Assembly (NCBI GenBank): GCA_973895155.1
Contig: OZ316894.1
Span: 8,146,234 to 8,210,233, forward strand
DNA from: Marsupella aquatica
Lineage: Eukaryota > Plantae > Marchantiophyta
Length of the DNA stretch: 64,000 nt
Direction of reading: 5' to 3'
Shown here in pieces: positions 19,350 to 43,960 of this stretch. The position numbers and the translations under genes are program-made. Under the pieces are notes generated by a model. The model worked only from the letters and a program-made list of their open reading frames with translations, did no database searches and was not told where the DNA came from. The first letter of the stretch is position 1. Every line of letters starts with the position of its first letter.

Positions 19350-22300
19350 GCATTTCACCTCCGGTATGGCACAAAGGATTCTTACAACTGCACTTTTCAG
19401 TTGCCATGATTTACAGCTGGATGCTAGAGCTGTCATCAGAGGGCTAGAGGGTTCACTGCATTCTTCATCAGCCCCTGTGACACCGGTTTTGGAGGTCCAA
19501 TCTCATGTACATAGTGGACCTTCTTCTTCTCCATTACATGTTTCCACTGGTTTGGCTGCCCCAATACCGATTGCTGCTGATTGTGTGACCAGAGCTACAC
19601 TTGATTCTGGTCATGCTGCTCCATCTTTCCTGGCTATGTTGTTGAGTGGAAAGACCGTGGATACTAACTCCCTTCACAAGGTACCTCATCATTTGCCGAG
19701 AGTGGTGCCTAGTGATAGGACTTCAGTTTCCACCACCATTGCCATTGTTGACAACAGGAATTCAATGGTCAAGTTGGAGGGTCACACTCCTCAGGTGGTC
19801 ATGCTAGACACAGGTGCTCAACCAGTGATATTGGGCATTCAGTTTGCCAAGAAGATGGGATTGTTGACTGATCATTTACAGCAATCCAGGTGGCACATTC
19901 GGACTGCTAGTGGCACTGTGGAGGATGTGCTGGGTGAGAGTTCTACTTTACTCACTCTCACTTTTAATGGAGGTACAGATCAGGAATTGCATTTCCCAGT
20001 CAGATGTTTGGTTACCAATGCCACTACGTATGATGTGCTCATTGGCCAGGAGGCTTTGTTCCCACCAGGTTTTACCATTGACAATTGGCATACTACAGAG
20101 TTGATTGGCATACGGATGGCTCACACTTGGGCTACATTCCACTTGATTTGCATGGTGCCCATACACCTATGGCTCACCACTGTGTGTTGAAAGCAGTGCA
20201 CACAGCTACCTATGTCAACCACCCATTGCAGGATTGGATTGAGGAGGATGATGATGAGGTGGCTACTGCACATGCTGCTGTACGTATAGTAGCACTTTCC
20301 AGCAACGTGGATCATCAACCAGAGGTGGTACAACGGCTCCAAGCAGCCCATGGACCTTTGGTGGCTGCATTGCGCAAATTTGAGGATCTAGGGCAGCACA
20401 ATGGCCAACCAATAGCCCCAATCTTGAGCGCACCAGTTACATGGACTCCTCCTTCAGATGGCCTTACATTGCTTGAGCTTTTTGGTGGCATTTCTACAGG
20501 CCTGGAAGCTCTCCTACAGTCTGGCATGGTGGTGAAGCAGTACATCTATGTGGATATTGATCCAGGTGCAAGGCAAGTGTCTGAATCCCGTCTACTGGAA
20601 TTTTCAGAGCGATTTCCCTAGCAGTTTCCACACAGTGCATGGAAGTCTGCATTTTCTTTCTTTCCTCCAGATATCCAGCTTATCCAGCACCGGCACTTAA
20701 CCCTTCTTGGCTCCCTTGATTTGATCATAGCTGGTTGGGAATGCCAAGGGTTTTCAGCTGCTGGTCACGGTGCTGGACTGCATGATTCTCGTTCTGGCCT
20801 TTTCACAGCATTGGTTCAGATTCTCACCTGGGCTCAATCCCTTCATCTTGATGTTGGTTATATCATTGAGAATACTCCATCTCAGTTTGACCAGCATCCA
20901 CAGGTCAAAGAGGATTTCAGTGTGGTCCAGCACTACTTGGGACCACCCCTTCTCATTGATGTAGTGCACTGTGGTTCTTATGCACATCGTCTTCGTAACT
21001 TTTGGACTAACCTTGCACCACCTTCCTTGCTGGAGATGGCTCTTCACCACACATCCAGGGACACTAACCTTACAGTGGACCAGATTTTGGATCCTGACAG
21101 TTCTTGCCAACCAGTTACACGGCAAGAGCCAGCACCTTGGTATCCAGCCAATACCATTGGACAGCCCCGTGCTGCTTGGCCTACATTTGTGTCCTTTCCA
21201 GGTGCACATGCTTTTCAGGGTGATGGTTCTGGCCTGGTTTATCGACATTCTACCGGTACATGGGATGAACCTAGTCCTGAGGAGAGAGAACGGGCTATGG
21301 GCTTCCAACCCGGTACTACAGGTCACACCAAAATCATCTGGCTGGCCAGGAATGCTTTACTTGGCAGGGTAATGGATCTTAATGCTCTCACTTGGCTTCT
21401 GGTCACTTGCATCCTTTTTCAGATGTACATTCATCCAGCATCTGGAGTTCCAGCTCTACCACTCCATGGTGCTGCTACATGGCATCCAGACCAAGTGCAC
21501 TTACCTCTATTCAACACTCACCGCTTCAGTCCAAGTGTTGGGGGGGAGGAGGTCCCTTGTAATGTGGCTGACATTATTTCTGAGTTTCATGCTGTGGATC
21601 AGACCAGAGCAACAGATACAGTAGGCCTTGGAGAGGCCTCATCACCTTATCAGCAGCATGCTAGCAGCTTGGGTGGAGAGGCTAGCACTTCTGGCTCTTC
21701 AAGCACAAGTACATCAGGTCCTATTCCTAGTGTTGCCAACTACACATTCATCATGGGCAACCACCTGAGTAAAAGACAGAAGGACCAGCTGCTGAATTTG
21801 CTCCTCAAGCATGAGAACGTGTTTGCTTTCTCTATGAAGGACTTGGGTAAGTGCAAGACTATGCAGTTCTCCATTGAGTTGGCTGATGAAACACCTATCT
21901 TCAGGCGAAGACACCGTTTGAGTAAGCATGAGTGGCAGCTAGTGGATGAGAGGTGCCAAGAGCTCTATGAAGCTGGTCTTATTCAGCCATCTACATCAGA
22001 TTTTGCGGCAGCTACAGTGATGCCAGCAAAGAAGGATTCCAGTGGATTGTGGACAGAGAAGCGCATGTGTGGGGACTACAGGCCATTGAACCTGGTCACA
22101 CCCCAGGACAGGTACCCCATGCCACGGCCAGAGGAGCTATGTGACAGCATTGGAGACTCAGACATCTTCACTCTTGTGGATCTAAGGCAAGGCTTTAACC
22201 AGATTTTGTTGCTTGCAAAGGACCGCAAGAAAACAGCTTTCCATGGCAGTAACCAACTATGGGAGTGGTTGGTGATGCCATTTGGCTTGAAGAATGCGCC

Positions 22301-24743
22301 CATATTCTTTCAAAGAGTCATGGACCAGGTTCTTCAAGGTGCTGAGTTTCTGAAATGCTACATTGATGATGTGTTGGTCCACATCAAAGGATTTGACCAG
22401 CATCTACTTGACCTTGAGGAGCTATTCATGAGGCTTAAGAAGGTGAACCTAAAGATACACCCCAAGAAGTGTGAATTTGCTGTTAGATCAGTAGTATACC
22501 TTGGGCACCGCATTCTTCCAAATGGAACCATGGCTCACTGGGCCAAGGTGGTATCCATCTTGGAAATGCCCACTCCTACCGATGTTCACACTTTGAGGAG
22601 TTTTATTGGGTTGTGCAATTACTACCGGATCTACATCAAAGATTTCAGCACCATTGCACACCCATTGTATGCTTTGTTGAAAAAGAATGTGACTTGGACA
22701 TGGAGTACAGATGCTGAGGCAGCATTTGCCACTTTGAAGGAGAAGCTCTCAGAATACCCGATGCTGAGAAGACCTGATTTCAGCAAGGTCTTTGTGCTAC
22801 ACACAGATTGGAGTGCCCTTGGGATTGGTGCCATTATGGGCCAGCATGATGAGGAAGGTAAAGAGTACGTCATTGCCTATGCATCCAGGAGCAACAATCA
22901 GGCAGAGAGTCATTATTCTTCGTATGAGGGTGAATGCCTTGCTGTTGTGTGGGCTGTCATACATTACAGGCCCTACCTCTATGGGACCAGGTTTGTCCTC
23001 TACACCGACCACCAGCCCTTGAAGTGGTTGATGACCAATGACAAGCTTACTGACAAGCTTGCTCGTTGGGCGCTCATACTCCAGGAGTATGACTTTGAGG
23101 TAATTCATAGGCCTGGTGTGACACATCAGAATGCTGACACTATGTCCCGTAGCCCTTTGATTACCTCTGATGATTCCTCAGATGCACGGCAGGATTTTGA
23201 CCAGGTTTCCATCCTGCCTACATTTCATCTCGCATTTCATGCATCTACCTATCTTGCTTTGCTGCCATGCTATGTTGTTGACCAACTTGTGGTGGACATA
23301 TGGGAGGACAGCGACACTCTGAGATTTCTGCAGCATGGGGAGTACCCCACACATGTTACTACTGCCCAGAGAGACCGAATTCAGCAAAGGTCCAAGCGCT
23401 ACTTGTGGAAGGGAGATCATCTCGTGCGCTGCTTGCCAGACAGGGAAGTGATGGTTCCACCCATTCATGAGAGGGTTGGCCTTATTCGTAAGGTACATTC
23501 TGAGCTTGGTCATTTTGGCGTTAAGAGGACTTACAGCCTCTTGGTCCCTCATTATCATTGGAGAGGCATGCATGGCCAGGTTCGAGATGTTATTGCCCGA
23601 TGTGAGCAGTGTGATAGGGTAAGGACTTCTTTCACGTCTCGGCAACCCACACTTCACCCACTCCCTATTCAGGTCATGTTTTATCGTTGGTCATGTGATT
23701 TGGCTGGAGAATTACCCCTCACATCTCGGGGTAATCTCTACATCATGATCATGATAGAGCATTTCTCCAAGTGGATAGAACTTGTGGCATTGCCGGATAA
23801 GACCTCCCGTAGCACCAGCCAAGCATTCCTACAACAAGTTCTCAGCTGCTTTGGAGCTTGTGCAGAATGTCTCACTGACCAGGGTTCAGAGTTTAGAGGA
23901 GAGTTCCAGGAGCTACTTGATCAGGCCCTCATTGATCATCGCCGGACATCACGAGATCACCCACAGGCAGATGGCTTGGCAGAGCGCATGGTTCAGACAT
24001 GCAAGAAGGGCCTTCGGAAGATCTGCCTCACCAAAAACAAGGAGGATTGGGACCTGGCCTTACCCTACATTGCCATGGGGTATAGGATGTCCAGACATGC
24101 ATCACTATCTAACTTTTCTCCCTACTTCTTGTTGTTTGGTCGTCACCTAGTTCCACCTTCTGCTATTGCTGCTCACATGCTTCAGGTGGTGGACTTGGAT
24201 TCAGCTGTGACTTGGTTTGATGTGATCTCTGAGAGGGCTGCCCTATTCAGGAGGGTTATGCCCATGGCCATGGAGAATTTGGCCATTGCACAGCACAGGG
24301 ATACACTGCGTTATGCACACACACGAGGGGGCACTTTTCAGCCCAAGGTCAGGAAGTTTGATGTGGGAGATTTTGTGTACTTGCAGCGGCAAGCTAACGA
24401 CACCCTGGACACCTCTACCAGTCGCACTATTCTCAGGGTTAAAGCTATTCGACCGTCTGGAGTGCTAGAGTTACAAGGGGCAAATGGGCGCACAATTGCT
24501 GACAATGCCAAGAATTGCGCCCCTTGTCATCTGCCTAACCTGGATCCCACCATTGTGACTTCTACTTGGATTCCACCTGTGGACTATCCTTGCAAAGTGT
24601 GTTTGCGAATTGATGATGCTGACCAGATGCTGCTATGTGATAATTGCAATGGAGGGTACCATCTTTTCTGCCTTCGGCCTGAACTTACCCAGGTGCCAGA
24701 AGGGTTATGGTTTTGCCCTTCTTGTGCTCCACGTGCTACCTGA
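19234..24743 (+). pseudogene. Retrotransposon pol: protease - C5 DNA methyltransferase - RT - RNase H - integrase - PHD
   Basis: PR MLDTGAQ (~19800); frameshift ~20088; stop 20619; RT RMCGDYRPLN, PFGLKNAP, YIDD; RH HTDWS, YEGECLAV, TDHQPL; IN H2C2 plus WSCD, TDQGSEF, GLAERM; terminal C4HC3 PHD. Confidence 0.93.
20460..21405 (+). other. DNMT3-like cytosine-5 methyltransferase domain within Pol
   Basis: Motif I LLELFGGISTG, II YVDID, IV DLIIAGWECQGFS, VI YIIENT, VIII AHRLRNFWTNL, IX ERERAMGF, X RNALLGR, in canonical order. Confidence 0.9.
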
Positions 24744-25495: not shown

Positions 25496-26432
25496 AGTCC
25501 TATTTGGTCGTAACTCAACCCCTTCCATTGGTTCTAACTCCCCGCCAAGCCCTCGGCCTTGCTATTATATCCGACATTATCTCTTGCCAACCGGTTTTGC
25601 ACTCAAACATGCATCAATGGACTGGGGGCAATATTGGGATCAAAGTTGGTCCGGGGGTGTCAGGTCCCCAGATGCATATATGAGGAGACCAATCTACTCT
25701 CAAACATCAAATTTGAAAAGCTATACAAACCACACCCCCAACCACACCACCAACCCAAGGGGGCATGGTGTCTGAGAGTAAGGCGCCCGGAGAGAAAGGA
25801 GCCAAGTAAACTTGGATATGGTTATCAAAAGGGTTCATGCAAGGGGTAGGAAAATTGCGCCGCTGAAAGTGGGTTGAGCCATACCGTTGCCCCAAGGGGT
25901 CTCAGCATTGGGGCGGCCAAAGCCAAGTGAACTATTGTAGCGACTTAGTTTAAGCAAAGCCTAAAATAACCAAAATTGAGGTTACCAATGGGGTTCAGGG
26001 ATACAGTCAATGTGTTTTACTTCACAGTCACAATCACTAGTAGAAATACCCCCTATTTTTTACCAAACCACTATTGACTACTGTGACAAGGTTATGGAAG
26101 TTTAGGGTGTTATCACTACATATGTCTTAAATATCACTTCCACAAAGTTTCCACTCATTTGTTGCGACTCCTTTGCGATGTTGACTTTACCTACTCTTTT
26201 CAATCACTCATTCTTCAAGGTGCAAGGGACATTGTTCATGGTTCAAGGTTGTCCATGCACCTTTGAAGTTGGATGGGGGATACCACTTAATTACAACATC
26301 CCATCATAAGGAAAATGGCAGGTCCACTATCTAAGCTGATTGTCTTGGTTTAGGGTTCTTATGTGAGTGAGTGCTACTCACCAATTGCCAAACATTCAAG
26401 CTTTTTATGTGAGAAAGCTTCAAATAGTAGAG

Positions 26433-26566
26433 GTACCCCCTTACATGAGCCCCTTACATGTCACTGGCTGAGTACCTTAGTACTCTCCACCGTTGTGCAG
26501 TACCCCCTTACATGAGCCCCTTACATGTCACTGGCTGAGAACCTTAGTACTCTCCACCCTTGTGCG
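26433..26566. repeat. 67-bp tandem duplication inside the CACTA left arm
   Basis: gtacccccttacatgagccccttacatgtcactggctgag.accttagtactctccacc.ttgtgc occurs twice. Confidence 0.85.
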
Positions 26567-27511
26567 CGGGAGCAAATGTAGGGTCTTCGTCCGCAAAGAG
26601 GGTTTACAAAGGGGAGGGGAGGTGGAGCGAATGAGGCGACTCATTGAGAGGGGCGATCGATAGTCGATCAATCAAGGAGGGAACGAAGGTTTATGGAGAA
26701 ACAATGGGATTCTTAGTGTGCAGTGAGTCGGGCTCTCTGTGATTTCAGGGAGGAGGAAGGGTTTGACACCACACTTGAAGCGACCTGACCACATTCAATC
26801 GGGTGCTGGGTGCGTTTGCGAGTGCTCCCTGAAGGCATTGCGGGGGCATTGCGGGAAATTATAGGGTCGGACGCCAAGTTCGTGGTGCGGGGGTCGGTCT
26901 TCCTCCATTAGCTTTGTAAGTCTTTACCTCTTTGCCTTGCATAGCATTGGGAGATGAGAGGAGAGGAAGTGCTTCTTGCTCTTGCGGTCGAAGACTCTCT
27001 GTGATTGAAGGGAGGAGGAAGGGTTTAGGGCCACACTTGAAGCGCAACGTGACCACATTCACCCAGGTGCTAAGTGCGTCCATCTTCCGCCATTTGCTTG
27101 TTGGGTTGTTCTTCGGTCAAGAGGAGAACAAGCTAGAACAAAAACACGCTGCGACATTGGAGCGGGCGACATTGGAAGTGCCGGGTTTAGGGTGTCAACT
27201 TGTTTTCAAGACCGCTGATCTCTGGTGTGGTGTTGGGTGCGGCTGGTGTTCAAGCAAAGGTGAGAGGTCCCGTGCGACGCACTGTGGTGCTTCATTGTGC
27301 TCTGTTTGTACTCTGTTTGTTCATCTTAACTCTGGAAAATTAATGACAGCAAAAACTATGGTTCATATATAGAAGGTTGTCCCTATTCGAGACCTCTCTT
27401 GCTGAATTCTCACCTCACTCTCTCTCGCCCTCTCTCTCGGTCTCGCTCTTCCATCGTGTCTTGCTCTTCCATTGTGTCCACTCTCTGTTGCAAATTTCTC
27501 TCTCTCGCGAT

Positions 27512-28488
27512 CCTCAAGTACGTGTCATCATCTCTCCCTCTCTTATGCATGCCCATCACTATAGCAATCTCATGTCGGGGTCAGCGTCGAACTTGGATTT
27601 CACTATGGAAATGTAGATGGGATCACAGTATATTGTTGGCACTTTCATTCTGCTTCGGCTTGAATTGCTCTAATCTTATACACTAGTATTCTAGTGTGCA
27701 GAAGTGTTGTGCAGAACTAAGGTGGGGTGCGGGGGGTTTTTCTTTGCCTTTGCTGAGCTGTGATTTCAACTCAACGGTCCTGTCCTTAGTCGCTTAGTGC
27801 TTATTTGTGTCTTGCAACAACTTTTCAGACCTGCGCGCCTGCAATGCTTGTACTTTCAGAATTGCAGACTTTAGAGTATACTCTTGTACTGTCAATGACT
27901 AAATTAGAAGTTATTACGCGCGCCTACATGCTTCACTTGTGTCTTTGGAGGCTTTCGGATTAGAGGTTGCACAAAGCATGGATGTCATAGCCCTAAACTT
28001 CAAATTTTCCTGCATGCAATTCTACCTCTACATTCATGTTTCGGCAACAGGAAGAACGCAAAGGGAGCAGGTCACTCTTCCATTGACTACTTTGCCACTG
28101 TATGTATTCAATGTACAGGACATTAGTCAAATGTGATACTCTATAATGTACTCCTCCACGAACAACTAATGAGCCACAGAACTGATGAGCCACACTCTGT
28201 CTGTGGCACTTGCAGATCATTTTTCCACCCGTTCGAGAGCTTTCTCTGTTGCCAAGCTAGGCACAAAGAAATCATTCCAGGGTTTTGTCAACTCCTGAGG
28301 TCTGTAATCACTCAGAGCCCTCTACATTGTCATTGCTTTGTCTTCACTGGTGGTCTCAGGGTCGAGCGTTTGTGCTGCTTATCCTCAAGTATGTACAGAA
28401 ATCTCTCCCTCTCTTATGCATGCCCATCACTATAGCAATCTCAGGTCGGGGCCAGGGTCAAGCCAGGATTTCACTATGGAAGTGTAGA
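27512..28488. repeat. Dispersed direct repeat of about 105 bp in the CACTA left arm (27512-27617 and 28382-28488)
   Basis: Shared tcctcaagta..atctctccctctcttatgcatgcccatcactatagcaatctca..ggatttcactatggaa.tgtaga. Confidence 0.75.
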
Positions 28489-28897
28489 CTAGATTTGGGT
28501 TATTTGATTGGATTTTATGTATGGGGTGTCGATTGTATTCTACTGGCCTTCTTGCTGTGCTGAGCAATGTCCTGTTGTGGACTTTTGAATTCTTCTACTG
28601 GTTCCCCTTATTTTTGTGGCCCCCAAAATTTATAAAAATTAATGTGTGAAAATGCTAGCCCAACAATTGCCCACCTTTAATGGCAGAAATCGTTCAGTAA
28701 TTGCCTGTGTACAATCTCAGAGTCCTAAACTTAAAATTTCCTCCATGCACACAACCCGTCTTGAATTTAGAACTTGAAATTACAGTTTCTCAAATCTTTG
28801 GTATTAATTCATAGTTTTAGTTTCTCATTCTTTGCATGCTTCACTACGTCACTGACTCTAGCCATATATTGTGTTGTTTTCTATCGGGGTAGAAGTC

Positions 28898-29620
28898 ATG
28901 GCTCGTCCAAAACGGTCAGCACACAGAGGCGGATCACAGGTGAGGCACGATTCCATGAGTAGACATCATCATTGGTCCAATGCACAAATTCATCAAAAAG
29001 CCGCTCATGTCTGTGCCATTTGTGACGATGGAGGTGACCTGGTCATGTGTGATGGCCCCTGCCTAAGACAATTCCATGTCAATTCCTGGTCCACTTATGC
29101 ACCACAAAATGCATGCCCTGGGGTTGGGCTCCGGGGGGACCATCGGGGTGCTTGGACTTGCTTTGATTGTGCCACTAATATCAGCAAGTGTGCTCAATGT
29201 GGCACAAACGGCACTGTTGAGGGGGATCAACCAGAGCTGCGGAAATGTCCTGACAGGTTTTGTGTTCGTTTTTTTTGTTTGACATGCCTGCCCCATGATA
29301 ACTCCCTTTGCCCACTACATATTTGTCCTGCTTGTGGGGAGCCTGATGATGACTACTGGATAGACATGGTCCATTGTCCCAGATGTCCCATAGCCTGGCA
29401 CCATGAGTGTTTACTAGCCCTTCAGGCAGAAGGGTATGCATGTGACCGCCAAATTTATTCCCACTCTGCACACGGGGTTGATAGGTGGTTTTTGTATTGC
29501 CACCTCCATACGATTGACCCTCATTTGCAGACCCCTGCGAGAGACCACTTGACTTGGCTATTGCTGGATGATACCTCCAGCGCCAGCAACAAAACAAGTG
29601 GATCAGCACCAACAGGCTGA
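28898..29620 (+). CDS. EDM2-like (NSD-type) tandem atypical PHD-finger protein, CACTA cargo, 240 aa
   Basis: VCAICDDGGDLVMCDGPCLRQFH, CPLHICPAC, CPRCPIAWHHECL and C-terminal LYCHLHTIDPHLQTPARDH, matching the PHD region of plant EDM2 as recalled. Confidence 0.85.
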   Translation: MARPKRSAHRGGSQVRHDSMSRHHHWSNAQIHQKAAHVCAICDDGGDLVMCDGPCLRQFHVNSWSTYAPQNACPGVGLRGDHRGAWTCFDCATNISKCAQCGTNGTVEGDQPELRKCPDRFCVRFFCLTCLPHDNSLCPLHICPACGEPDDDYWIDMVHCPRCPIAWHHECLLALQAEGYACDRQIYSHSAHGVDRWFLYCHLHTIDPHLQTPARDHLTWLLLDDTSSASNKTSGSAPTG

Positions 29621-30523
29621 GCTAAATGAATCCAACATTGCACATCTCACATTTTGGACTTTTTAATGAAGTGGGCACCTCACTGCGCTGTCAACCATAG
29701 CTCAGACACACCCCGCTACAGTGAGCTATCGATCGACTTTGTGACTGCATAGTAAATTTGGATCTTGCTTTTTCAGTTCAGCCATACATGGTTCTGTCCT
29801 TATACTTTCGTACACGATGACACCTCCAAAACTAACTAAGTTAACTTATTTTTTGAAGACTGATTAAGTTAATTGCAATTTCAAAGTTAGGGCCTGCACA
29901 AGTATGTCTGTGTTTTTTCCACTTTGAGTGAATCATGTGTATGGCAAGAGACCATAACTGTGAAAGACTAAAGATTCCAAGCAGACTATTGCCTGGAGTA
30001 AAACAACATGCATGCATTGGAGTATGAAAATACATATATAGCTCAAATTATGTATTTGTTTTTGCTCTTAACAAAGGTCATCTTAAGTCGTGTGCCTGAC
30101 CCATACATTTGTACAATTACAGATGTGACTGGAAATTGGGCAGTTGAATGATATCATTCTCAGTCCCCACCACTGTCACGTAAGATACAGGTATTCAAAT
30201 GTGAATTCAGGCTATATGCAGACAAGATAATATAAAGGGCCACATGTATGCTATGTGTATACTGAAGTAGGCTGTCGCTCTACTTTCATCAATGTATTTA
30301 CATGAACACATGGTGAAAATAATTTGACTGAAGAGTATATAGTTTGTCCTATAACTCCGTGCTGGGATTTACTGCATGTATTGACTTTCGATCTTGTCAT
30401 GTGTGCCACAATCAGGGAGCTAGAGTGCACTTTGTGTCATCAGAGAGCATTGGGCTGAAGCATTGAGGGACAGGCAACGCGGGCACTGGTATTTCTCTAT
30501 TGGCTTTTATTACAGGAGGCATC

Positions 30524-31450
30524 ATGCCTTCCAAACGGAAGCGTGAACTTGTCCCCCTTCCAACTTCCCAGTGTGCTCCCATCTTCCAAGGGGTCAGAGT
30601 CTTTTTTGTCCCAGGTATTCAGAGTGCAAGATTGGATATCCTTAGGAGAAAACTCATTGAGTGTCACGGTACAGAGACACAATCTCAACTACAGGACACT
30701 GAAGTCACCCATATTATTGCAGAAACATGGGAACATTGTCTGAGAATGGCATCTTGGTCGGTTTTCTATGACAAAGTCTTCTTGAGGCATGTCAAAATAC
30801 TTTCAGCAGAATGGATGTCTGACTCCCTTAGAAAAGGGAGTGTCCAAGATCCTGATGATTACAATTTGTTTGAGAGCAAGTACAATAGCGTCCAAATGAT
30901 GAAAGACAATCAAGATTGGCACAAGGCTCGTAGAATTGCAGGGAGAGGTGGGAGTAGGGTTCCGTCTATTGACCAGATCACAAAAGTATACAACAACATT
31001 ATCCCATATGAGACAGAACCCATCCCAGACCGTACCATGTTCAGAGGTGTGAGGGCTGTTATACTTGACAAGTCTATCGAGCCATATAGGGTCTGTCGTT
31101 TCAAGAGGGAGATCAGTAGAAGAGGTGGTACAGTGATTGAGAAGCTCACTAATGAGACCACCCATCTCATTGCTCATTCATATTCTAAGGCATGCCGAGA
31201 GTATGGAAAGTCCACAGTACGATGGCTCATCACACATGGGCTGCGTGTGGTCTGCCCTGAATGGGTCAGGCAGTCACTTTCAACAAATATGCGATTAGAT
31301 GAGCATAAATATGATTTATATGAAATATGGCCAGCAAAGCCATTCATTCCCTATGACGACCCAGAATATGTTACTTCTGAGTTCCAGACCACGGATGAAG
31401 AGTTTTCTGATAGTGCGTATGATTCTGTTAGCCCTAATGATTATGAATAA
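30524..31450 (+). CDS. Tandem BRCT-domain protein (DNA polymerase lambda-type BRCT), CACTA cargo, 308 aa
   Basis: NLS-like MPSKRKR. Repeat 1: IFQGVRVFF..VTHIIA..EWMSDSLRKG..DDYNL. Repeat 2: MFRGVRAVI..GGTV..TTHLIA..EWVRQSL..KYDL. Acidic tail. Confidence 0.85.
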   Translation: MPSKRKRELVPLPTSQCAPIFQGVRVFFVPGIQSARLDILRRKLIECHGTETQSQLQDTEVTHIIAETWEHCLRMASWSVFYDKVFLRHVKILSAEWMSDSLRKGSVQDPDDYNLFESKYNSVQMMKDNQDWHKARRIAGRGGSRVPSIDQITKVYNNIIPYETEPIPDRTMFRGVRAVILDKSIEPYRVCRFKREISRRGGTVIEKLTNETTHLIAHSYSKACREYGKSTVRWLITHGLRVVCPEWVRQSLSTNMRLDEHKYDLYEIWPAKPFIPYDDPEYVTSEFQTTDEEFSDSAYDSVSPNDYE

Positions 31451-31858
31451 GGTCTCAACTGTCTGTATGCTAGACGGTTACATTTTTGAAATAAACTTTT
31501 GTGTGTTATTTTTTGTCTACAAGACATTACTCCTTTTCATCCTCCAAATGTCTTGGTTTTGCATGTGGAGATGTATGGCAGTGTATGATGTACGTTGTAC
31601 CATTGACTGGTCAACGACCAAGCACTTCACTGATTATAGCAAGTCTGTTATGATGTTGCTGCCTGCAGTGAGCAGATGATACGTGAGCAGGTCGGGCGCC
31701 AGCATAGAGCGGACTTGATAGTGAGTGTGTTTAGCGTCTATGATATTTCCTTCATGAAACTTGCATGTGTCCCCTCCATGTACTTAGAATATGCAATTGT
31801 ATAAGCCTGTCTAGTGCAAAGGGTACATAGCCAAGGGGTGCCTACGACAGCTGAAGGT

Positions 31859-34800
31859 ATGGATCAGGCAAATGAGGATGGACAGTTGGGGCAAAGGAAT
31901 CAGAGACATACCAATGAAGTGCGACTCCCTTTGCATCACCCACTGAGGATTACACGTCATGACTCCAAGTTGTGGAATAGAGAGGTGCTTAGAGCAAGTC
32001 GGGGCAGAAATGCCCGGATGAGATGCCCCTGCATGCAATGTCGAGGATACCACTCGATGACCCTGAACCAAGTGCATTCTCATCTTCAAAGGCATGGAAG
32101 ACATCCAATCCGCAGGGTGTGGAATGTGCCAGAGGAAGAGGATTCATCGGATGATGAATGGAGAGCAGATTTTGAAAATGTGAATACAGCAAGACGCTCT
32201 GCATTCTTTCATAACGTCACTGGTCATGCAGGCAACAATGCCGAAGATGAGTATGTTCCACAGGGAGGTCCCGAGACTTCTAATGAGGACGGGGCAGATG
32301 TTCCTAGGATGGTTTCCGACATTTTTCAAGACCTGGATGCACTTTATGAAGATGCAGAGGCACAGGGGGACGAAGAACCAGACATGCATGGTGCAGATCC
32401 ATCGGACCAAGAAGAGTTTGACATTGGAGAAGGAGCTGGAGATGATGGTCAATTCTTGGGAACTGGGGCCTACTTGGAGGAAGCTATGTCCCCATTGTAT
32501 GGTGGTGCAAATTGCTCCAAACTAGGGTTCATAGTGATGTTCCTCAATATATGTGGATGTCACCGTGTGCCCAACATATGTGTAATAGAGTTGTTGATGT
32601 TCCTACAGAGGACAGTACTACCCGCTGGAAACATTGCTCCTAAGAACATGTATGAGGCAAAGAAGGTGATCATGAGCAAACTTGGTTTGAATTATGTGTC
32701 CATCCATGCATGCCCAGATAGCCATGTACTTTTCAGAAAAGAATATGCTGATTGCCTATCCTGCCCTATCTGCGGAAAGCACAGATATAAGAACGTGGGG
32801 AAGTCAACTCAACCTGCTAAGGTCCTACGGCATTTCCCTCTCATTCCAAGATTGCAGCGCCTCTATAGGTGTCCATCCATTTCTAAGATGATGACTTGGA
32901 CCTCTGATCAGAAGAGTACAGATGGTTTGCAACGTCACGTTGGAGATTCCAACCACTGGAAGTACATAGATGAGAAGTGGCCAGACTTTGCAGCAGAGAG
33001 CAGAAATGTGAGGTTTGGTCTAAGCCTTGACGGTGCTAATCCTTTTGGAGACAAGAACAACGTGTATTCTTGCTGGCCAGTGACTTTGATAAATTAGAAT
33101 CTCCCGCCTTGGATATCCACCAAGCGTTTTTTTGTGATCTTGTGTCTTATGATTCCCGGCCCAAACTCTGCTATAAGTGCAAACATAGATGTTTGGTTGG
33201 CCCCTGCGGTGGAGGAATGGGTTACTCTATGGACACATGGAGTTATGACAGTTGATGCACTTTGTGGACCTGGTAGACCGAGGACATTCAACCTACGTGC
33301 AATGTGTGTTAATTCAATAGCAGACTACCCTGGACATAGCATGATATCTGGGCAGGTAGGGAAGGGATATCTGGGTTGCACACGATGTGGCCCAGATGTT
33401 ACATCTGAACGGTCCGTTTCCTTGGGCAGTATCAAATTCCAGGGCCACAGGCGATATCTTCCTGCCGACCACCCTTTCAAGCACAGGCAATCCCACATAG
33501 CCCACTTCAACAACCAGAGGGAGCTTCGAGAGTCTCCTGTGTTGGTTAGTAGAGACCAACTTCTGCAGTGGGGACTGAACAAGGTGTCTTATGATGAATA
33601 TGGTGCTTGTAGAGACGTGCCAGATGACCCAGCAAAGACTCATGGCATCAAAAGGCAGACAATGATGGACACATCATTGGAGTATTGGAAGGTAACATTT
33701 GCATATTCACTTGTACTCAGTGAACCTCTTCAGATCCTATGCACAACAGTTTTTAGTTCTTGTGTCTGAACCTAATTGTGGCAATCATGCGTACTTCATG
33801 GGTGCAGGATTTTGAGCCAAGCAAACATAACATTGATGTTATGCACATTGAGAAGAATGTATGCGAAAGTCTTTTGAAGTTTCTATCGGGGGACAACGAT
33901 ACTGCAGAAATACGAAAGGACCTTCAGGAGAAGGGCATTCGTCCTCAACTTTGGCTGCAAGAATCCCAGAATAGGCCGGGTGTGGTTTTCAAGTACCAAG
34001 CTCCATATGTTTGCACCCAGAATGAGTGGAACACAATTTTGTCTAGGCTGAGTTCGTTCAGAGTACCCTCTGGGTACGCTGGAGCCTTTGCAAAGCATAT
34101 AAGGAAGAAGAAGTTGGGAAGCATGAAAACTCATGACTTCCATGTTATGATGCAAGACATTCTACCAGTATGTCTGAGGGGATTGATGCAAAAACCAGTT
34201 CGCAATGTCATTTTGAGACTGTGTCAGATCTTTCGTCGTATTTGTGTGAAGGTGTGGGACCCTACAACATTTCCTCAGTTAAAGGCAGATACTGTGCGTG
34301 TGCTTTGTGACTTGGAGATTTATTTCCTGCCAGCATTTTTTGATGTCATGACTCATTTGATCATCCATGCGGTTGAAGATCTGGGCCACTACGGCCCAGT
34401 GAGTACAAGGTGGATGTATCCAATGGAACGGTACATGAAGTTGCTAAAAGGCCATGTACGTACTTATTACAGACCTGAAGCAAGCATGGCTCTCGGTTAC
34501 ATTCAAGAAGAGACCTTGGGGTTCCTTACAGAGTACATGGCTGGTGTAGACAGTGTTAGGAGCAGGGTGTGGGATGCTGAGGAAGAAGAGGGGGTGGCTG
34601 GAGAGGTTCTTCAAGGCGCTTTTACTTCCTTGCAATTGTCTGTAGAAGTTCGTGATGCAGCACACTTATATGTCTTACACAATACAGTCATGATGCAACC
34701 TTGGTGGCAGTGAGTACTCATGTTTCCGCACCCTCCTTGCATTCCTTCTTTATTCATATCCATTTTGGTAGGATATGTACATTGTATTGAGAAATTGTTC

Positions 34801-35574
34801 TCATTGTCATCATGCAGGGAATACAATGTGCAGAAGGCCGCCCAATTAGGGTTAAATCACCAGGCATTCCCTACTTTTCCTGAGTGGATCAGGACAACAA
34901 TTCGAGAGCATAGCAGGCAGAACCCAAACATGGATAGAGATGTTCTCCTCTTGTCTGTGCCTCCCAGACGTATTGTACAGCGGTATAAACGGATGAAAGC
35001 ATATGGGAATCAGTACCGTGTGCATGATGATGAGGACAAGCATTTAGTGACATATAATTTGGGGGTAATATCTGTGTTTGAGCATATAGATGCTCAGAGC
35101 AACAGGGGCTGGATGGAGATGGGATATGTTGGGGAGTTGGCAGACATCTGGGCACTGAATTATGGGAACACATCACAACAAATCTTCCTAATGAAAGGTT
35201 CATGGGTGAAGCCAGATTGGCATGGGCCAAGAGCGACCATGAAACGGGATATGGATGGCTTTCTAATGGTCAATTTTAACCAAAGACTGGCAGAATGGAT
35301 GGAGCCTTTTGTGTTCCCAAGTCAAGTGGAGCAAGTATTTTTTTTAGATGTGGAGGAGTCTCGTGGTTGGCGTGTAGTCTGCCATAGCTCACCTAGAGTT
35401 CGAAGGATGGAGGGTACTAAAATAGAGTTCAGTTTGGATGCACATGGGGCCTTTGAACAGCCGGCAGTAGACGTTGTACATCGGGGCCAGGGGACCAGGG
35501 AGTACATCCCCTTGACAGTGAGACAGACTTATGAGGGAGAGGTTGAAGCTGACATGGACGAAGATGATGAGTAG
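31859..35574 (+). pseudogene. CACTA TnpD/Tnp2-like transposase with one premature stop
   Basis: CPCMQC associated domain, IHACPDSH, RHFPLIPRLQRLY, GLSLDGANPFG, ADYPG, IDVMHIEKNVCESL, MKTHDFH, RWMYPMERYM, EPFVFPSQVEQVFF. Introns 33692-33807 and 34710-34817. In-frame TAG at 33095 (IN*NLPPW). Confidence 0.93.
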
Positions 35575-35872
35575 TTGGATTTGTTTTGTTGTGAGTAGGT
35601 GACTCTTTGAAGTGCAATGAGTAGCAAGTATGAGCAATAAATGGATGACTTGTTTGTGCAACCGCAGTAACTTGGTGAGTAGGATGCCAGACGAAAATGG
35701 CATGTGTGAGTATGAGAAGCAGGCTGTGAAACATCGAGCATGGGTTCGCCAATGTGCCGCAGCCCTGTTGGGTGATGTGCAAGAGGCTATTTCGGATATG
35801 TAAGGGACTGTGCATAGTATGAGCTGTATGTGTATCTCGTTGTGTGCGTCTGTTCATTGTGTAGCTTCTGTA

Positions 35873-38800
35873 ATGGACTACTACATACATAACCTGTGTC
35901 GAATTTCATGTGGGTGTTGCAGTAACAAAAGTATCCCAACACTGTCGAAGCGGAGTCAGTGTAGACGGAAGACCTTCTGTAATCCTGACGGACCTAGGCG
36001 ACGCAGTGAGAGGTTGACTTCAAAGACCCCTATTTCAATGGCTGAATCTCCTGATAAGAATGAGGTAGAGGATTGCATGCCTGATGTTGGTGATACAGAA
36101 TATGATCCTGACCAAGATCCGAATGCAAGTGCTAGCATGTCAGAGGATGATGACATGCCAAATCCTACCCCTCCACCAAAGCCTGCTTGCAGTAAGGCAA
36201 CTGGGGGAACTTCTATGAGATCTCGACCGACGCCCTCTGTATACTCAGCCCAAGCCCCAAGCAACAGCAATTGCAATAACCCCCAATTTAATGCCCCCAA
36301 CTATAACTGGCCGCAAGCACGACAGGGGGGCAATAACTATGGCGGGTCTATGGGTGTAGGCCCTTCTGCCAGCTATATGGGTTGGCCAAGTAAGTGTGAA
36401 CATTTTAATTTGTTTCATGTGGACAAGTGTATTTTGAGCTCAAATTGGCTGATTGTGTTCCTCAATAGATGTGGGTCTGAGTATGACAATTTGCCTGGTC
36501 TGATGTGAATGGCAGACCCAATGTGGGACCGTATGCAGCCCACAAATATGTATGAAGGAGGGTCAATGGGGCCATCGGGGCAATTCATGGGAGGTCCTCT
36601 CCCAATGGCGGCAGGATGGCAAGGTTATGGTGGGTATGGTGGGAACCCAGCACCAGCACCAGCACCTTCAGTCCAACCGACACAGAGTCTACGGAGGGGA
36701 GGAGGTATTTTCTACAGCAGTTCTAAGTAAAGTATTGAAATCAGGTAGTTCACAGAGACCATATGATATTAATGGTGTTAATTGCGTTTCTCTTTTCAGA
36801 TAACCCTATCACACCCCGCTCAGGCCATGGGAGAGCAACTCCTGGATTTGCAACACCAAGTAGTGCGTCAGGGAGCACTGGGAGAGGTGAGAATGTGAAG
36901 CTGGGTACTGTTGAAGTTGATGATGAAGGCCGGATCACAACGATGAGTGCTGGAAAGAATAGATGGCACAATGACTTGCGAATGGAGTGTCTACGGTGGT
37001 TGGACATTAGCTGTACTAACTTTAATTGTCAACATCCATCTGACTGGGAACTGGTTTGCAAATATATGCGAGACAAGTGGGAATATTTGGGGAATTCTGG
37101 GAAAGGGGTCAGTGCTGATTGTCTTGCAGAGTATGGACGAACTATCATGAAAATAGAGAGGCATCGATTGCACAAAGCATGGATTGCTGATGGCAGTAAA
37201 CCACATGCTGAAGCACCCCCAAGTGTTCATGTAGAACAATGGACTCGACTGAGAGGGACATTCCTGTCTAGGGCAGGACAGGAGAAGTCTGCACAAATGA
37301 TTGCTGCTAGAAATGCAGTGAAGAATCCTACGCTTACAGGGAGGGGAGGACATGCACCAGTAGTAGCCAAATTGGTTGGGTTCCCATGCCATACATATCT
37401 TTATTTACATTTCAATATTTGAGTGGACTGTATGTAGTTGTAGCAGCACGCTACGTTTAGGCAAGATTGACATTGAGAAACGTGTCTTGCAATGTTTATG
37501 TGCTCCAGAAAAAGCTTACTGGAGAGAAACCCACAAAAGAGGAGGTTGTGGCAGAAATCAAAAGGGTAAAGTGTGATGAAGGCAGCATTGGATCTAAACA
37601 GGTAATTTAGGAGCATTATTGATGGACAATCTGTTATACAGTCCTTCTTCAGATGTACAGTACTATCAGCCCTTATGCAATTGTAAAATTGCTGAGAAGA
37701 GCCGTTTGGTTGGTGTATGTGATATATAGCAGGGAGCAGTGTCTACCCTTACAGAGATATCAGACCGGTTGAAGACTGTGGAGAACGCTTGGCCATCAGT
37801 AGAGACTGAGATGAAGAGTCAATTCAAGGACATAGCTAGTCTTCTTCAAAGCCAAGGATCAACCTTAAGGGAAGTACAAGCTGAACTACGTGAGTTGCGG
37901 GCGATGCACATTGCTGGCAGGGTTGAGCACCCAATTGCACATCCATATGAAGAGCCTGCAAATATTGTGGAAGTTGTGCCTACAAAGAAGAGTGGTACGT
38001 GTCATCTGAAATCATGTTTAGTGTAGTGTGACTTTACCTAGGAATTTGAGGTTCATGGATGCAGGATGGTTCAGGTTCAGGTTCTAGACCCTGAAGGTTT
38101 GTTACATTGTGTATCAGGTGATCAGATTGCAGTGGTTGCAGCAGATCCAAAGATCATCGAACCTGGTACAACTGTCATTGAGAGTAAGTAAATGTTGGTT
38201 TGAAGACTCTGTCTGGCCTGTTAATGTGGTTGAGTATCTATGCCATGTACGTTCAATTAGTGCAAACTTGATGGTTTGTTGACAGCTTTAGTGCCTATAT
38301 GCTTAGTTGTAAATGAAGGAATTTGTGGCTGCTATTGAGGTATAGAGCCAGCACAGGAGGAGGTGCGCATACCAAATCCAGCAGGCAGGAAGAGGAGACA
38401 AAACTTAGAGGCTACCAAATTTTCAGATTCACAGGAGAAGCAGAGTGATGACAATGATGTGATTTTCATAGACTCTCAGCCTCCCCCAGGTATTGGAGAT
38501 GAGTTTTCTCAATCCCCACCACTGATGAACATGGGAAAGATGAGGACCAGAAACAGTGGGAAGGAGACTTTGCCTTACAAGGCACCAAAGAAGAAGAGGA
38601 ATAACACTTCTCCAAAAGGGACAGCAGTGAGCATTGTAGCACAGTCTTCTAGGCTAATGGCAACTGATAATTCTGGTGTTTGTGTTGGGCAAGGCATACT
38701 TCAAATTGAAGCAAGTACTTTCCATGGAAAGAAGGTACTTGCTGATCATGTTGTGCTGTTGTTGACTGCTGTCAGTAAGCCCAAATATCTTCTACCCTTT

Positions 38801-38890
38801 CCAAACAAGGGAGATGATCCGCCACACATCCATCTTGTGGATGCTGTGGAATCATTTGTGATGTGGCCTGAGAAATTTGTAGAGTGTTAG
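35873..38890 (+). CDS. CACTA second gene (TnpA-like; Ptta/En/Spm-type and Tnp1-like domains), multi-exon, boundaries approximate
   Basis: Low-complexity N-terminus; R(H)RLHK..PPSVHVEQWTRL..KSAQMIAARNAVKNPTLTGRGG (36800-37375); coiled coil (37739); C-terminal FHGKKV..LPFP..VESFVMWP. Confidence 0.7.
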
Positions 38891-39389
38891 GTACCAAATA
38901 CAATTTGAGACTCAAAATGTGAAGGATTGTTTCAATATATGACCACAATTTGGAGTACATGATGTTGGGTAATACTCTTTTTTTTATGGATTGCTCATAT
39001 TTTGAGTTATTATCGTGCCATTGTTAGTTGGATTGGTGCTTTTGTGACATTAATGACTCAGTCTCGACTATGAATGACAGCATTGTCTACGGAAACTAGT
39101 GCGGTCAATTGAGTGTTATCAATCACTCACGGAAAACCCCATATGACTCGAACTAAGTCATTCTAAACACTTATGTTTGACTGATGTATGGTTCCAAATA
39201 CTTGACCCTCTAGTCACTAAAATGACTAATGACACTAGTCAATAATATGACTAAGTTAATCCAAGTCACCACTTTTATGACTACTAGTTGCAAGAACGAT
39301 GTCAGTGATTTTCAGTCATACATGACCGGTTTTAGTCATAGTTAGTCGTATTTTATGGTAAAAAATAGGGGGTATTTCTACTAGTGAAT

Positions 39390-39890
39390 CTTTCACTAAC
39401 AACATTCCTTTACTTATCGATTGTTTTGTATTTAACAATATCTTGGTTTACTTTTAACGCCATCATTTTACCAGCTTTGACATAGTGACATCTTTGACAT
39501 AACGACATCTTTGGCTTCACAACATATTTTTACTCAGACTACATCTTTGACATAACAACATCTTTTACTTGATGACATCCTTCACGTAAGGACATCTTTG
39601 GCGCCCGCTTTGGTGCCACAACATTTTTTCACCCGACAACATCTTTCAAATAATGACATTGTGTAACTTGACAACACCTTTCACATAAAGACATCATTCA
39701 TTTGGCAACATGGCTTCTTTTGACTTGACGACATCTCGGGCAACACGATATATATTTTTTGAATGACATCTTGGGCAACACGACATCTTTTCTCTTAATG
39801 AATTCTTGCATGGGTGACATGACATCTGTTTTCTTAACAATGTCTTGTGCGATGCGATAACTATTTTCTTAACAACATCTTGGGTGACAG
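39390..39890. repeat. Degenerate tandem array with a period of about 17-18 bp (core ACATCTTT / GACATC)
   Basis: Recurrent gacatctttgacataacgacatcttt-type units immediately to the right of the CACTA. Confidence 0.7.
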
Positions 39891-40130
39891 GATTTGCACC
39901 ACTATTGAGCTAGTATTTCATAGTTTTAAGTGTAGTTATGGGACCCATCAATTTGCATGGGTAGTAGGTAGAGCGATGAGTAACACCTAGCCTGTAGAAC
40001 TACTCTTAATGGTTGAGCACCTTCTTTTTGCATGGGGAACTGGTGGAGGAGCAATATCCATAACAATAGAACACTAGACTTCATCGCCTCATTAATTGAA
40101 AGTACCCACCCCACTTTTCTCACGTAATTA

Positions 40131-41023
40131 CAGTGAACTTTGGATAAGTGCACACTCCATAATCGCTTACCCTTGATTAGTGCATGCCATCTTGTTCTTC
40201 CCCTTTTTTTTACATGGGATAAGCGGTTTTTAAGCAGTTTTTCTAAGCACACATAGGGCTAAAATCATTTTGCTAAATGATAACTTTATAAACACTTACC
40301 CTGGATAAGTGATTGAATGCGCTTATATGTAAATACATAAACTCAAAAAATGTCATTTACCAATAAATGGATGCCCATTATTAGTAGAGTACATAATGCA
40401 CTTAAGGAGTTTTTTGGCTGGATCTGGATGGCGAATGCTTTGGCCAGCTTCATAGGTGGAAGAGATGGAACCGGACTTTTAGTCTAGATGGCAGATGGAC
40501 CTATATTGAAGGGAAATACAATGCTGAGACAGTGGAGGGCAAAGTAGACCAGGCAGGAAGCTCCTTAGTTGAAGGGGACTGCTCAGTCCATACTGCCGTC
40601 AGTAGCAAAGAAGTTGTGAGGGCTTAGTGTAGGAACTGTAGTCCACTTTTGTTTTTATTACACATTGGACACAGAATGTTGTCATTTTGAAATAAATTTT
40701 GTGTTTTCACGGAATGTTGGTGTGATCTGGGTATATTGTAATAATTACAATGTGCATGGTGAGTTTTGGAGTCCATGTCATTGTTCATTCACTTGATAGT
40801 ACTCAATCTGCCATCGCCCACACAACTGGGTCTCAAATACCTGGAAACCCTGGATAATTACACATTTAACAAAGGACCCCAAATTTAGCACACTTATCTA
40901 TTAGGGCACTTTTTGCGGGATGTGTGCTTATCAAGTCATGCAACACCTCCTTTAGTGCATGTCAGATCTGTCTTCCCCAGAGGGTGCGGTTATCCAGAGT
41001 TTGCGTTTATCCAGAGTTCACTG
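40131..41023. mobile_element. Non-autonomous Tc1/mariner (pogo-like) element / MITE, 893 bp
   Basis: TA|CAGTGAACTTTGGATAAGTGCACACTC ... GAGTTTGCGTTTATCCAGAGTTCACTG|TA; imperfect TIRs of about 27 bp; TA TSD; no ORF. Confidence 0.8.
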
Positions 41024-43559
41024 TAGTATGGGCAACAGGGATTTGAACACATAGCCCGGGACACATAAGTTAGCACAATCAGTCTGGGATTCCCTAGTCC
41101 TCACCTTATGGACAGACTTAATAAAAACCACTTGGCTAGTCTTGCTTGACCCACACTACGTGTGGTCCCCATAACAACTAATCCTATAGGCCCATATTGA
41201 TTAGCAATTGCATTACCCAAACTCCTTGTGGGTGCTCCCACCCCAACCCCCCCCCCCCCCCGCCGGCCCCCCCCACCCCCCCCCCAACCAACTCCCCTTA
41301 TTGCGTATAAGACAAGTTTTTATAATGGCCTTATATTCAATTGATCCAAGTCCTTAGCCCACAAGCTGGCTCCTTTTTCAATAACGGTGGCCCACTTGGA
41401 GATTGAATTAATGGTGGCTCCTTTTCAATAATAATGAATTAAGCTGACTCCATTTCAATAACGGGGGCCCACCGTAATCAGCCCCAACTGGATTATGGGC
41501 CTTTTCGTCAGCATTAGTAAGCCGTAATTGCAGGACTAGATAAGTTTTCTCCGTCAGCCGCATTGAGTCATTGGAAAGAAGCCCTTTTGCTAATTAAGAC
41601 CTTAGCCCATACAAGCTGGCCCACTTGGAGATTCAATGGGAAATTAAACGTAATCAACCCAATTATAATCTGGGCCCTTCCATCCAGGATCTACTCACCC
41701 TTAATTTCAGGACTAGATAAGTACTCTCCGCCAGCCTCACTGCAAAAGCTGTTGTGCTAAAAGATTCCTTAGCCAATAGACTCTGCCTCGACAACAGAAC
41801 CTAGTGTAGCTGTCCTATACATAAATTAAACGTGCCCTCCCATGCAAAGTGGCTTTTGCACTGGCAAGACCCTAAACTTATTCTTTTTCTAGTCAATTCA
41901 TTGATTTCAATTCATTCATTGTTACAGCTATTGCTGTAAGAGACTACAACGTACGCGGACACAAAAACCAAGAGATAGGATCCCAAAGGTGCATAAATAT
42001 GAAGAGCGGAACCAATGACTAACAGCAAGGAGAATCTGAAGCTCAGGTGCTTTTTGCCCACCTCAACCTACTCACCTTTGAGTAAAACTGTGGTAACAAG
42101 TGTCTTCCATATCAGGGTCACACAGTGAAAGTTGGCTACATGAATGTTAAAATTATAAGAGATATTATAAAATCACAGTTTAGCCATAGTCAGGTGTTTG
42201 GTTGAGGTTAAATGTGCTACTATTATATTCTGTGGCAAAACTTAGTTAGCAATCAAATGAAACTTAGACTCATTATTATGAAGTCATCTAGGAGACAAGG
42301 ATAGCTTAGTCTATGAAAACTCGATATAGTTGGTGGATTTAGAGTTCAATAAGTTTCCTTTATATGTTCCCGAGAATGTAACTTCTGGTGAAGTGAATTA
42401 CATATCTCCTATGTTGACTACTTGTGTGCTTGTTGAATGCAGGGTTGAATGTTGACATGTGCATGCTATCCGGGATGCTGTCTTAGAGTAACACTTACAT
42501 AGTTGTACCAACTAAGGTCCCTGTTCTTGTTGAGTGTTTGGTAGGGTTTGCAAAGCATCTCCAAACAAGTGTTAGAAAAGCCAAAGTTTAGCAGAGAATG
42601 CAATTCATTAAATGCTTCTCAATCTTGCATATTTTTTGCTAGTCTCTTCTACTCCATTGTCAGTATTAGTATTAGTAAATTGTCACATAATTAGTTGTGA
42701 CTTACTGGATTACGGAAAGTAATGTCAAAATCTCTGATTCCACGCTTAGTCTGGGAAAGGAAGTGGGTGCCCACAACAAATATATACCAGGATCCTAACT
42801 AAAGATTGGAGCTCTCAAGATTATAAAAACTTGCATCGATTCTTACGTAACTTACTTTCCATAAAGTAGTGCATGTTTTTTTAATATAAAACACTCACCT
42901 ATTTCCATGTTAAAAGGTGTTCGGTCCAAATGCAGCTTTTGAATGAATCGGTTTTTTCCAGGCTAACCACTCTTGGTGAATGTGCCTGAAAGTTAGTTAA
43001 GTTCAAGATCGAGGAGAAAAGCGGTAGCAAGCATGACTGTGCTGTACTTCACTCGAGTAGGGACTCATAAGTTTGAAATGTTGTAACTGACTTCTGTTAT
43101 CTCCCTTTCCGTGGAGTTTTACAGATTTTCCTTCACAAAAATAAAAAGATCCCGAAGAGAAATTAAGCATCATGAATTAAGTATTGATCAAGATCACAAG
43201 GAGAAATTACAGACAAATGAATGAAGTAGAGATATTCTATAATGTGAACAAACATGAATTTTGTTAGAGAGGGGACTGTTGTTAGCAAGACACTTGTGAT
43301 TTTTAATTTCTTTTGATTTTGGCTGTTTTTAAATATTTTTTGTGCATTTTTTATGACTCCAGATGGCTAGCAAGATGGCTAGCAAAAAGAGGAGTCCCCA
43401 GAATGAATGTTATCAACCAGGTTACTCTTAGCGAGACAGCTGCATATAGAAAATTAAGGGTTGACCATGTGAGGAAAAGTTTTGCTCAAGCGAGTAAATT
43501 ATTTTACTGTTTCCTTGTAGGCTACAATGACCCAATTAAGTATCCATCAAGATCCCCAA

Positions 43560-43810: not shown

Positions 43811-43960
43811 CTTTGTGACTGGGGTGATGTCCCTTCACCATCTCGTCAACATACGTGTCTTCTGTCGTGATTCTCAACTTGCCCCTTTCCCTCACACGTG
43901 TCCTCTGGATTCCACGTTAGTCAGGGTGGCTACTACTTTATGTACTGACAAGCATAGGCC

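Follow-up and report, generated by a model that had tools for sequence, protein, structure and literature searches.

The 308-aa open reading frame (ORF) with two BRCT domains that lies in the middle of the 64,000-nt stretch of DNA analysed here (the window) is an intact accessory gene that selection maintains in a lineage of plant CACTA transposons, and it belongs to an old protein family with a fixed architecture. The initial annotation had described this ORF as cargo of a CACTA element, and it was indeed found inside an element bounded by TIRs and a TSD. The features by which CACTA elements are recognised, that is, TIRs starting with CACTA, a 3-bp TSD (AAT/AAT) and a TnpD carrying Transposase_21, were all present. 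The element comprises the following parts:

26035..39386, forward strand: complete CACTA (En/Spm) element of 13,352 bp, with a perfect 31-nt TIR pair and an AAT TSD
26035..26065, forward strand: left TIR with the CACTA start, TSD AAT at 26032-26034
28898..29620, forward strand: PHD-cluster ORF of 240 aa, NSD-type, partner of the BRCT ORF (Pfam near cut-off; PDB NSD2)
30498..30515, forward strand: putative splice acceptor (T-rich tract plus CAG), 8 nt before the BRCT ATG, read from the sequence only
30524..31450, forward strand: double-BRCT ORF of 308 aa, single exon, from ATG 30524 to TAA 31450 (Pfam, AlphaFold, pN/pS, family P0002-P0028)
31859..35574, forward strand: TnpD transposase, exons 31859-33691, 33808-34709 and 34818-35574 (GT..AG introns and frame)
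36038..38890, forward strand: multi-exon ORF set in the TnpA position, assigned solely by position and with no informative Pfam match
39356..39386, reverse strand: right TIR, TSD AAT at 39387-39389

Genes thus follow each other in the order PHD ORF, BRCT ORF, TnpD and ORF set in the TnpA position. The location directly upstream of the transposase was confirmed, since the TnpD ATG at 31859 lies 408 nt downstream of the BRCT ORF. TnpD matched the Pfam families Transpos_assoc, Transposase_21, DUF4218 and DUF4216, and the 1163 codons of the window copy include one in-frame stop, codon 413 (33095-33097). This copy also carries a 3-nt insertion near 32669. Compared with CACTA (En/Spm) elements, the window element has the same TIRs, the 3-bp TSD, the Transposase_21/DUF4218/DUF4216 transposase and a second gene downstream, but it adds two genes upstream, the PHD cluster and the double BRCT. 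An acceptor-like AG was also present a few bases 5′ of the PHD ATG, and the acceptor-like sites before both ATGs would fit expression of the two ORFs through splicing from a shared 5′ leader.

The element was present in six sequencing runs from three organisms (A, B and C) and four studies, none of which is recorded as RNA. Four runs, namely DNA runs of organisms A, B and C, were aligned to the whole element, and all 30 bins were covered. In run X1, the main ORF contig reached a depth of 226 versus 13-22 in the divergent minor contigs. Depth is not a copy count, but this contrast hints roughly at ten or more copies that are nearly identical.

We then examined the ORF and the fold of its product. 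When the surrounding 2.2 kb was shuffled 500 times, no ORF of this length arose. Pfam recognised the whole protein as BRCT (E 3.7e-14), and each half separately scored above the cut-off for both BRCT (PF00533) and BRCT_2 (PF16589). The protein can be divided as follows:

30578..30862, forward strand: BRCT1, aa 19-113 (Pfam), with R36/I39/L40 at the positions of human Pol lambda R57/L60/F61 and the family-specific W69 and W78
30878..31000, forward strand: helical linker, helices aa 119-140 and 149-159 (AlphaFold model)
31034..31324, forward strand: BRCT2, aa 171-267 (Pfam, AlphaFold, structure search), with R189 at the R57 position and R192 at the L60 position
31325..31447, forward strand: acidic, Ser/Thr-rich disordered tail, of a character conserved in closer relatives and containing TTDEE

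AlphaFold, run on a 17-row alignment, gave a confident model of two BRCT folds (mean pLDDT 79.4, with ten-residue blocks of 80-95 across the domains), a helical linker and a low-confidence acidic tail; folding from the single sequence reached a pLDDT of 35. Since the pTM was 0.47, the position of BRCT1 relative to BRCT2 is not fixed by the model. Each element of the BRCT fold (four strands, three helices and the helix-3 Trp) was identified, the Trp being present in all family rows, and structural Z reached up to 15.1 against BRCT domains. Look-alikes of the protein in the structure atlas all scored <0.9 and were generic BRCT proteins. The first 8 residues include 4 K/R, and the 41-aa tail contains 11 D/E, 8 S/T and 1 K/R. 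Neither a polymerase nor a Pol X family was matched in the ORF by Pfam, NCBIfam gave no match for it, and the ORF ends after the acidic tail. Hence, the open 308-aa frame, NLS-like start, two BRCT repeats, acidic tail and missing polymerase proposed in the initial annotation all held, with the repeats now resting on both profile and structure.

To evaluate selection, the ORF of the window was compared with that of runs X1, X3, X5 and X6. This comparison listed 40 differences, with 10 more not shown; 37 of the 40 were inside the ORF, and pN/pS is based on these 37 of about 47. Sixteen were synonymous and 21 non-synonymous, the expected synonymous share being 21-26%, which gave a pN/pS of 0.35-0.45 (one-sided p 0.002-0.015) for the window copy versus the copies in two other organisms. 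The BRCT domains alone showed 10 synonymous and 12 non-synonymous changes (p 0.012-0.041). No listed difference created a stop, an absence that is not significant by itself (p 0.17). A 771-nt contig stretch of organism B showed 32 differences from the ORF and no gap. In the PHD ORF, both of the listed differences were synonymous. The pN/pS values, although moderate, indicate purifying selection on the BRCT ORF.

Broken and deleted copies exist too, as indicated by one minor X1 contig whose tail has lost 1 nt, an X3 contig with 4 nt inserted at the stop and an X2 contig that is a deletion derivative jumping over 29511-32840. At window position 31079, in codon 186 of the BRCT ORF, the window copy differs from all four runs and thus carries a private change. 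In addition, a piece of BRCT2 of ∼110 nt (window 31052-31167), about 86% alike and with a common foreign upstream flank, was seen in X1, X5 and X6 contigs of low depth, and one X3 contig contains it as well. Either it is an old fragment whose locus is shared, or it represents a diverged family.

Conservation was also found well beyond these copies. With HMMER and an E limit of 0.001, 22 proteins were retrieved from among 1.84 billion representatives, namely 14 stand-alone relatives or pieces of them, 6 multi-BRCT proteins of the TopBP1 type and 2 single-BRCT outsiders (P0020 and P0021); a Pol X domain was found in 0 of the 22. With cluster members added, there were 8 distinct full-length stand-alone double-BRCT proteins including the query, 264-321 aa long and 20-44% identical, none of which carries a name in the source databases. 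The linker helix, the acidic tail and a W/WP after BRCT2 recur in the closer relatives, and the architecture is retained down to 20% identity. Thus, the BRCT fold and the conservation among family copies that the initial annotation had called for were both found. In word-index protein searches, P0001 gave no match at near or longer lengths and the family profile gave P0012 only, and neither these searches nor the 1.84 billion representatives contained a close host gene. A metagenome scan yielded 2 loci (L001 and L002) from 131 candidates. Each has a premature stop, whereas the cluster member P0026 is intact, and such a mixture is what a repeated element would be expected to show. No transposase was matched in the 464 nt downstream of the L001 relative, a stretch too short to decide, and neither transposase nor TIR was seen in the short L001 and L002 contigs. 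Placement in CACTA elements is observed for the window's own family, and we infer it for the distant relatives. The viral contigs and prokaryote genomes scanned contained no relatives, and a viral fold library returned generic ligase BRCTs as its sole matches.

Where the two domains came from was addressed by comparing them with each other and with host BRCTs. BRCT1 and BRCT2 are 26% identical (E 7e-7), and the family profiles of the two score each other's members at 31-78 bits; these cross-scores place the two nearer to each other than to the TopBP1-type domains, which reached at most 15.5/26.5 bits with the same BRCT1/BRCT2 profiles. They probably arose by internal duplication. The profiles scored P0020 at 49/53 bits and P0021 at 26/45, and the best PDB match of both outsiders was the human Pol lambda BRCT, although a weak one (E 0.025 and 0.006, respectively). 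We then built a tree of 38 BRCT domains, including 12 family BRCT1s, P0020, P0021 and 14 TopBP1-type domains. The 12 BRCT1s formed one clade (94/88), and the family together with P0020 and P0021 was set apart from the 14 TopBP1-type domains (82/95); P0021 formed a long branch. A single family clade of BRCT1 plus BRCT2 was neither rejected nor demonstrated (p-AU 0.22). As a bridge to Pol lambda P0020 is weak, because it shares W69 and the helical extension and may itself be element-borne.

Solved structures gave a different ranking. Pol lambda was at rank 8 of a PDB profile search, behind other BRCT proteins, and at rank 39 for BRCT1 (E 0.011) and rank 23 for BRCT2 (E 3.5e-5) when domains were searched separately; direct PDB searches placed Rad4, TopBP1, BRCA1 or REV1 ahead of it. 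In the structure comparison, Pol lambda had a Z of 11.5 (rmsd 2.1, 94 residues) versus 15.1 for PARP4 and 14.4 for XRCC1. The label 'Pol-lambda-type' of the initial annotation is therefore moderately backed by the P0020 and P0021 profile scores and by R36/I39 in BRCT1, but not by solved structures, among which Rad4/TopBP1, BRCA1, REV1, PARP4 or XRCC1 rank equal or higher. The start of the protein may resemble the N-terminus of plant Pol lambda. The N-terminal NLS-BRCT of Pol lambda and the window protein have in common a basic start followed by a BRCT and the lack of a phosphate pocket, and BRCT1 shares the G-I-x3-R-x2-aliphatic-aliphatic helix 1. Unlike Pol lambda, the window protein has two BRCTs and an acidic tail and contains no 8-kDa or polymerase domain; moreover, the Ku-contact residues are not family-wide and Pol lambda is not the best structural match. 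On balance, descent of the family BRCTs from Pol lambda appears fairly probable from sequence comparison with the human enzyme.

In human Pol lambda, helix 1 of the BRCT is described as docking on the Ku70/80 bridge with R57 and L60 as key contacts, L60R impairs recruitment, and a catalytically dead form with R57 unmutated brings gap filling and survival down to less than in the knockout (accessible text of PMC12056208). When the human positions were mapped onto the family through P0020, R36/I39/L40 of BRCT1 and R189/R192/F193 of BRCT2 fell at R57/L60/F61. Having R36 and I39, BRCT1 could dock on Ku, while BRCT2 probably cannot, since R192 places at the L60 position an Arg, the very change that impairs recruitment in the human protein. 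The R57-equivalent Arg was present in 3 of 12 family BRCT1s (2 of 12 for the Arg plus the aliphatic pair) and in 3 of 9 BRCT2s (pair, 0); because so few members keep it, docking on Ku in the human mode is not a conserved function of the whole family. W69 and W78, on the other hand, were kept in all 12 family BRCT1s. The phosphate pocket of BRCA1-type domains, described as Ser/Thr-Gly in the beta1-alpha1 loop and Thr/Ser-x-Lys at alpha2 (PMC10386641, accessible text), was missing from both BRCT1 and BRCT2. Finally, TTDEE in the tail is loosely like the CK2/FHA motif YxxSTDE, given as the FHA-binding core of XRCC1/XRCC4 in the part of PMC4655838 available, and P0002 has STDE with an aromatic residue at -4. 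We regard this likeness as a lead only, because such a stretch appeared in 3.5% of tail shuffles.

The ORF located upstream of the BRCT ORF encodes a PHD cluster. Its matches to PHD-1st_NSD (E 1.9e-5) and PHDvar_NSD (E 1e-4) were both just under the Pfam cut-off, and its best PDB match was NSD2 (E 1e-8). It may resemble plant EDM2 and is a possible H3K9me reader. According to the accessible text of PMC7529245, EDM2 binds H3K9me2 and regulates TEs. In the distant relative L002 (L002:2-459), a 39% identical PHD ORF (E 1e-26) lies on the same strand about 400 nt upstream of the BRCT ORF, indicating that the pairing of PHD and double BRCT is old, the adjacency in distant relatives being that of this one contig; the initial annotation had not noted this pairing. 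Predictions of a PHD-BRCT complex, in which alignments were not used, scored 0.00, 0.44 and 0.04 in separate runs.

As to the role of the BRCT protein, the reading that we tentatively prefer, giving it somewhat less than an even chance, is that of a nuclear, non-catalytic adaptor or decoy acting on host double-strand-break repair at transposition sites, which in this subfamily would occupy the Pol lambda site on Ku and favour templated repair of the donor. An ancestor of the element would have captured one BRCT as an intronless copy, most likely the N-terminal NLS-BRCT of Pol lambda, and this BRCT would have been duplicated before the family diversified. The ORF would be expressed from the left promoter of the element through the acceptor that precedes its ATG, and BRCT1 would in this subfamily dock on the Ku70/80 bridge at the Pol lambda site. 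Without a polymerase, the protein would then dampen end joining by gap filling where the donor was cut, as human Pol lambda does when catalytically dead, and repair would shift to templated copying of the element, that is, copy gain. Further partners would be recruited through BRCT2, the acidic tail and the conserved Trp surface, and the PHD protein would act as the chromatin reader in this process. Arabidopsis Pol lambda is described as binding Lig4/XRCC4 through its BRCT and acting at transposon excision sites (accessible text of PMC4444747). In its widest form the proposal is unlikely: an old CACTA lineage would carry a two-gene module for host control, in which a PHD protein reads histones and a Pol lambda mimic lacking the polymerase occupies Ku at the break left by excision, steering it to templated repair and copy gain.

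The main rival, which we consider possible if rather doubtful, joins the BRCT and PHD proteins in a chromatin module in which the BRCT protein is the scaffold, serving anti-silencing, processing of the full-length transcript or target-site choice instead of break repair, any Ku-binding ancestry having been repurposed. That the PHD and BRCT ORFs remain adjacent at 31-39% protein identity, that the W69/W78 surface and not the Ku-binding Arg is the conserved feature of BRCT1, and that the PHD ORF matches the NSD PHD cluster and may share the chromatin role of EDM2 all speak for it, and transposon accessory factors with anti-silencing activity exist, such as VANC and TnpA (10.64898/2026.08.24.746577, accessible text). 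However, the linkage is seen in a single distant contig, gene adjacency need not mean common function, and characterised BRCT domains mostly point to the DNA-damage response. The ORF might instead come from a phosphopeptide-reading tandem (TopBP1/Rad4, BRCA1, PTIP) or from the tandem BRCT of LIG4, and would then have a checkpoint role or be an XRCC4-binding LIG4 mimic. We hold such an origin to be improbable even though the best PDB sequence matches were Rad4/TopBP1 and LIG4 BRCT2 and the top Foldseek match was the LIG4 tandem BRCT: whole-protein scores sum two domains while TopBP1-type BRCTs score poorly per domain, the phosphate pocket is missing from both repeats, the repeats are nearer to each other than to any tandem host pair, and overlays on tandems gave an rmsd of 8-22 A.

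Two further alternatives concern whether the ORF is a gene of its own. The PHD and BRCT ORFs might be alternative 5′ exons spliced to TnpD, so that the transposase would gain domains for chromatin and for tethering repair; alternative splicing is described as yielding several products from maize En/Spm and Arabidopsis SPM3/7 (PMC13547354, accessible text), and an acceptor-like site precedes each ORF. Each ORF has nevertheless its own ATG and its own stop, and the relatives end at comparable tails, suggesting a true C-terminus, which leaves this arrangement only a slim chance. The least probable alternative, and one largely refuted, is a neutral Pack-type capture of host gene fragments whose decay is still to come. 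CACTA elements do take up host DNA (accessible text of PMC6379663), and some copies are broken, as in the minor contig with the 1-nt deletion, the stops of L001 and L002 and the derivative lacking 29511-32840. But the pN/pS values together with family membership argue that the ORF is not a decaying captured fragment, and it has no introns, no close host gene and an architecture kept across the family. Pack-CACTA and Pack-MULE elements likewise hold host-type domains within TIRs, whereas the window ORF is intact, intronless and selected and resides in an element that encodes its transposase.

Among described systems, VANDAL VANC, Spm TnpA and MuDR MURB are alike in being non-catalytic, element-encoded proteins kept by selection; they act on silencing or the transpososome, and the accessible texts describe no BRCT protein among them. 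Whole-word searching found no literature joining CACTA with BRCT, within the limits that supplements, Repbase entries and subscription papers could hold a mention. As far as they are accessible, the main texts of a giant-transposon review (PMC6431247), an Arabidopsis TE product atlas (PMC13547354) and a structure survey of 962 Spm proteins (10.64898/2026.08.24.746577) use neither BRCT nor PHD as a term. In a survey of 1007 genomes and 775 active plant CACTA clusters, Table S6 (PMC12973397) contains one singleton RTT107_BRCT_5, no PF00533 or BRCT_2 and no PHD, and that survey excluded elements >12 kb, the window element being 13,352 bp. Enlarged CACTA elements of 16-20 kb with 4-5 ORFs are described in Chondrus crispus (PMC6431247, accessible text). 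Hence, the double-BRCT accessory gene and its PHD partner are apparently undescribed in CACTA elements, while extra ORFs (PMC6431247) and captured DNA (PMC6379663) are both known in this superfamily.

Whether a cut-and-paste transposon gains copies is governed by the way in which its donor break is repaired, a choice normally credited to the host, and a conserved and selected BRCT-only protein inside an element makes this question of repair choice testable. Were the protein indeed a Ku decoy, it would be a transposon-encoded inhibitor of end joining and an answer to how cut-and-paste elements multiply, and a working decoy would also provide a small natural tool for shifting plant repair to templated editing. 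Even if a role in repair fails, the PHD and double-BRCT pair would stand as an undescribed CACTA accessory module and a candidate anti-silencing or targeting system.

The window contains several other features. A Gypsy retrotransposon at 17490-24743 (forward strand) has a pol with a C-5 cytosine methyltransferase-like segment before the RT (PF00145, E 1.2e-5; TIGR00675, E 1.5e-7) and, at the C-terminus, a PHD finger (E 2.5e-11). Retrotransposons that bear a methyltransferase are known from algae and dinoflagellates, and our literature search found no description of one in land plants. On the reverse strand, a NIF/FCP1-type phosphatase-like ORF (PF03031, E 5.8e-5) adjoins a 595-aa acidic repeat-rich ORF (61212-61637 and 62141-63928); both are just beyond a Copia element (56929-60019) and may be cargo of a further element. 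The transposon cluster lies between two paralogous receptor-kinase genes with several exons each (3354-11720 and 47319-56171, forward strand), which suggest that the host is a land plant. A degenerate array of 17-nt repeats occupies 39455-39890, right outside the right TIR, and a 39-nt tandem array was found at 43921-44195. Between these arrays, at 40129-41025, a pair of 29-nt inverted repeats 839 nt apart may bound a MITE.
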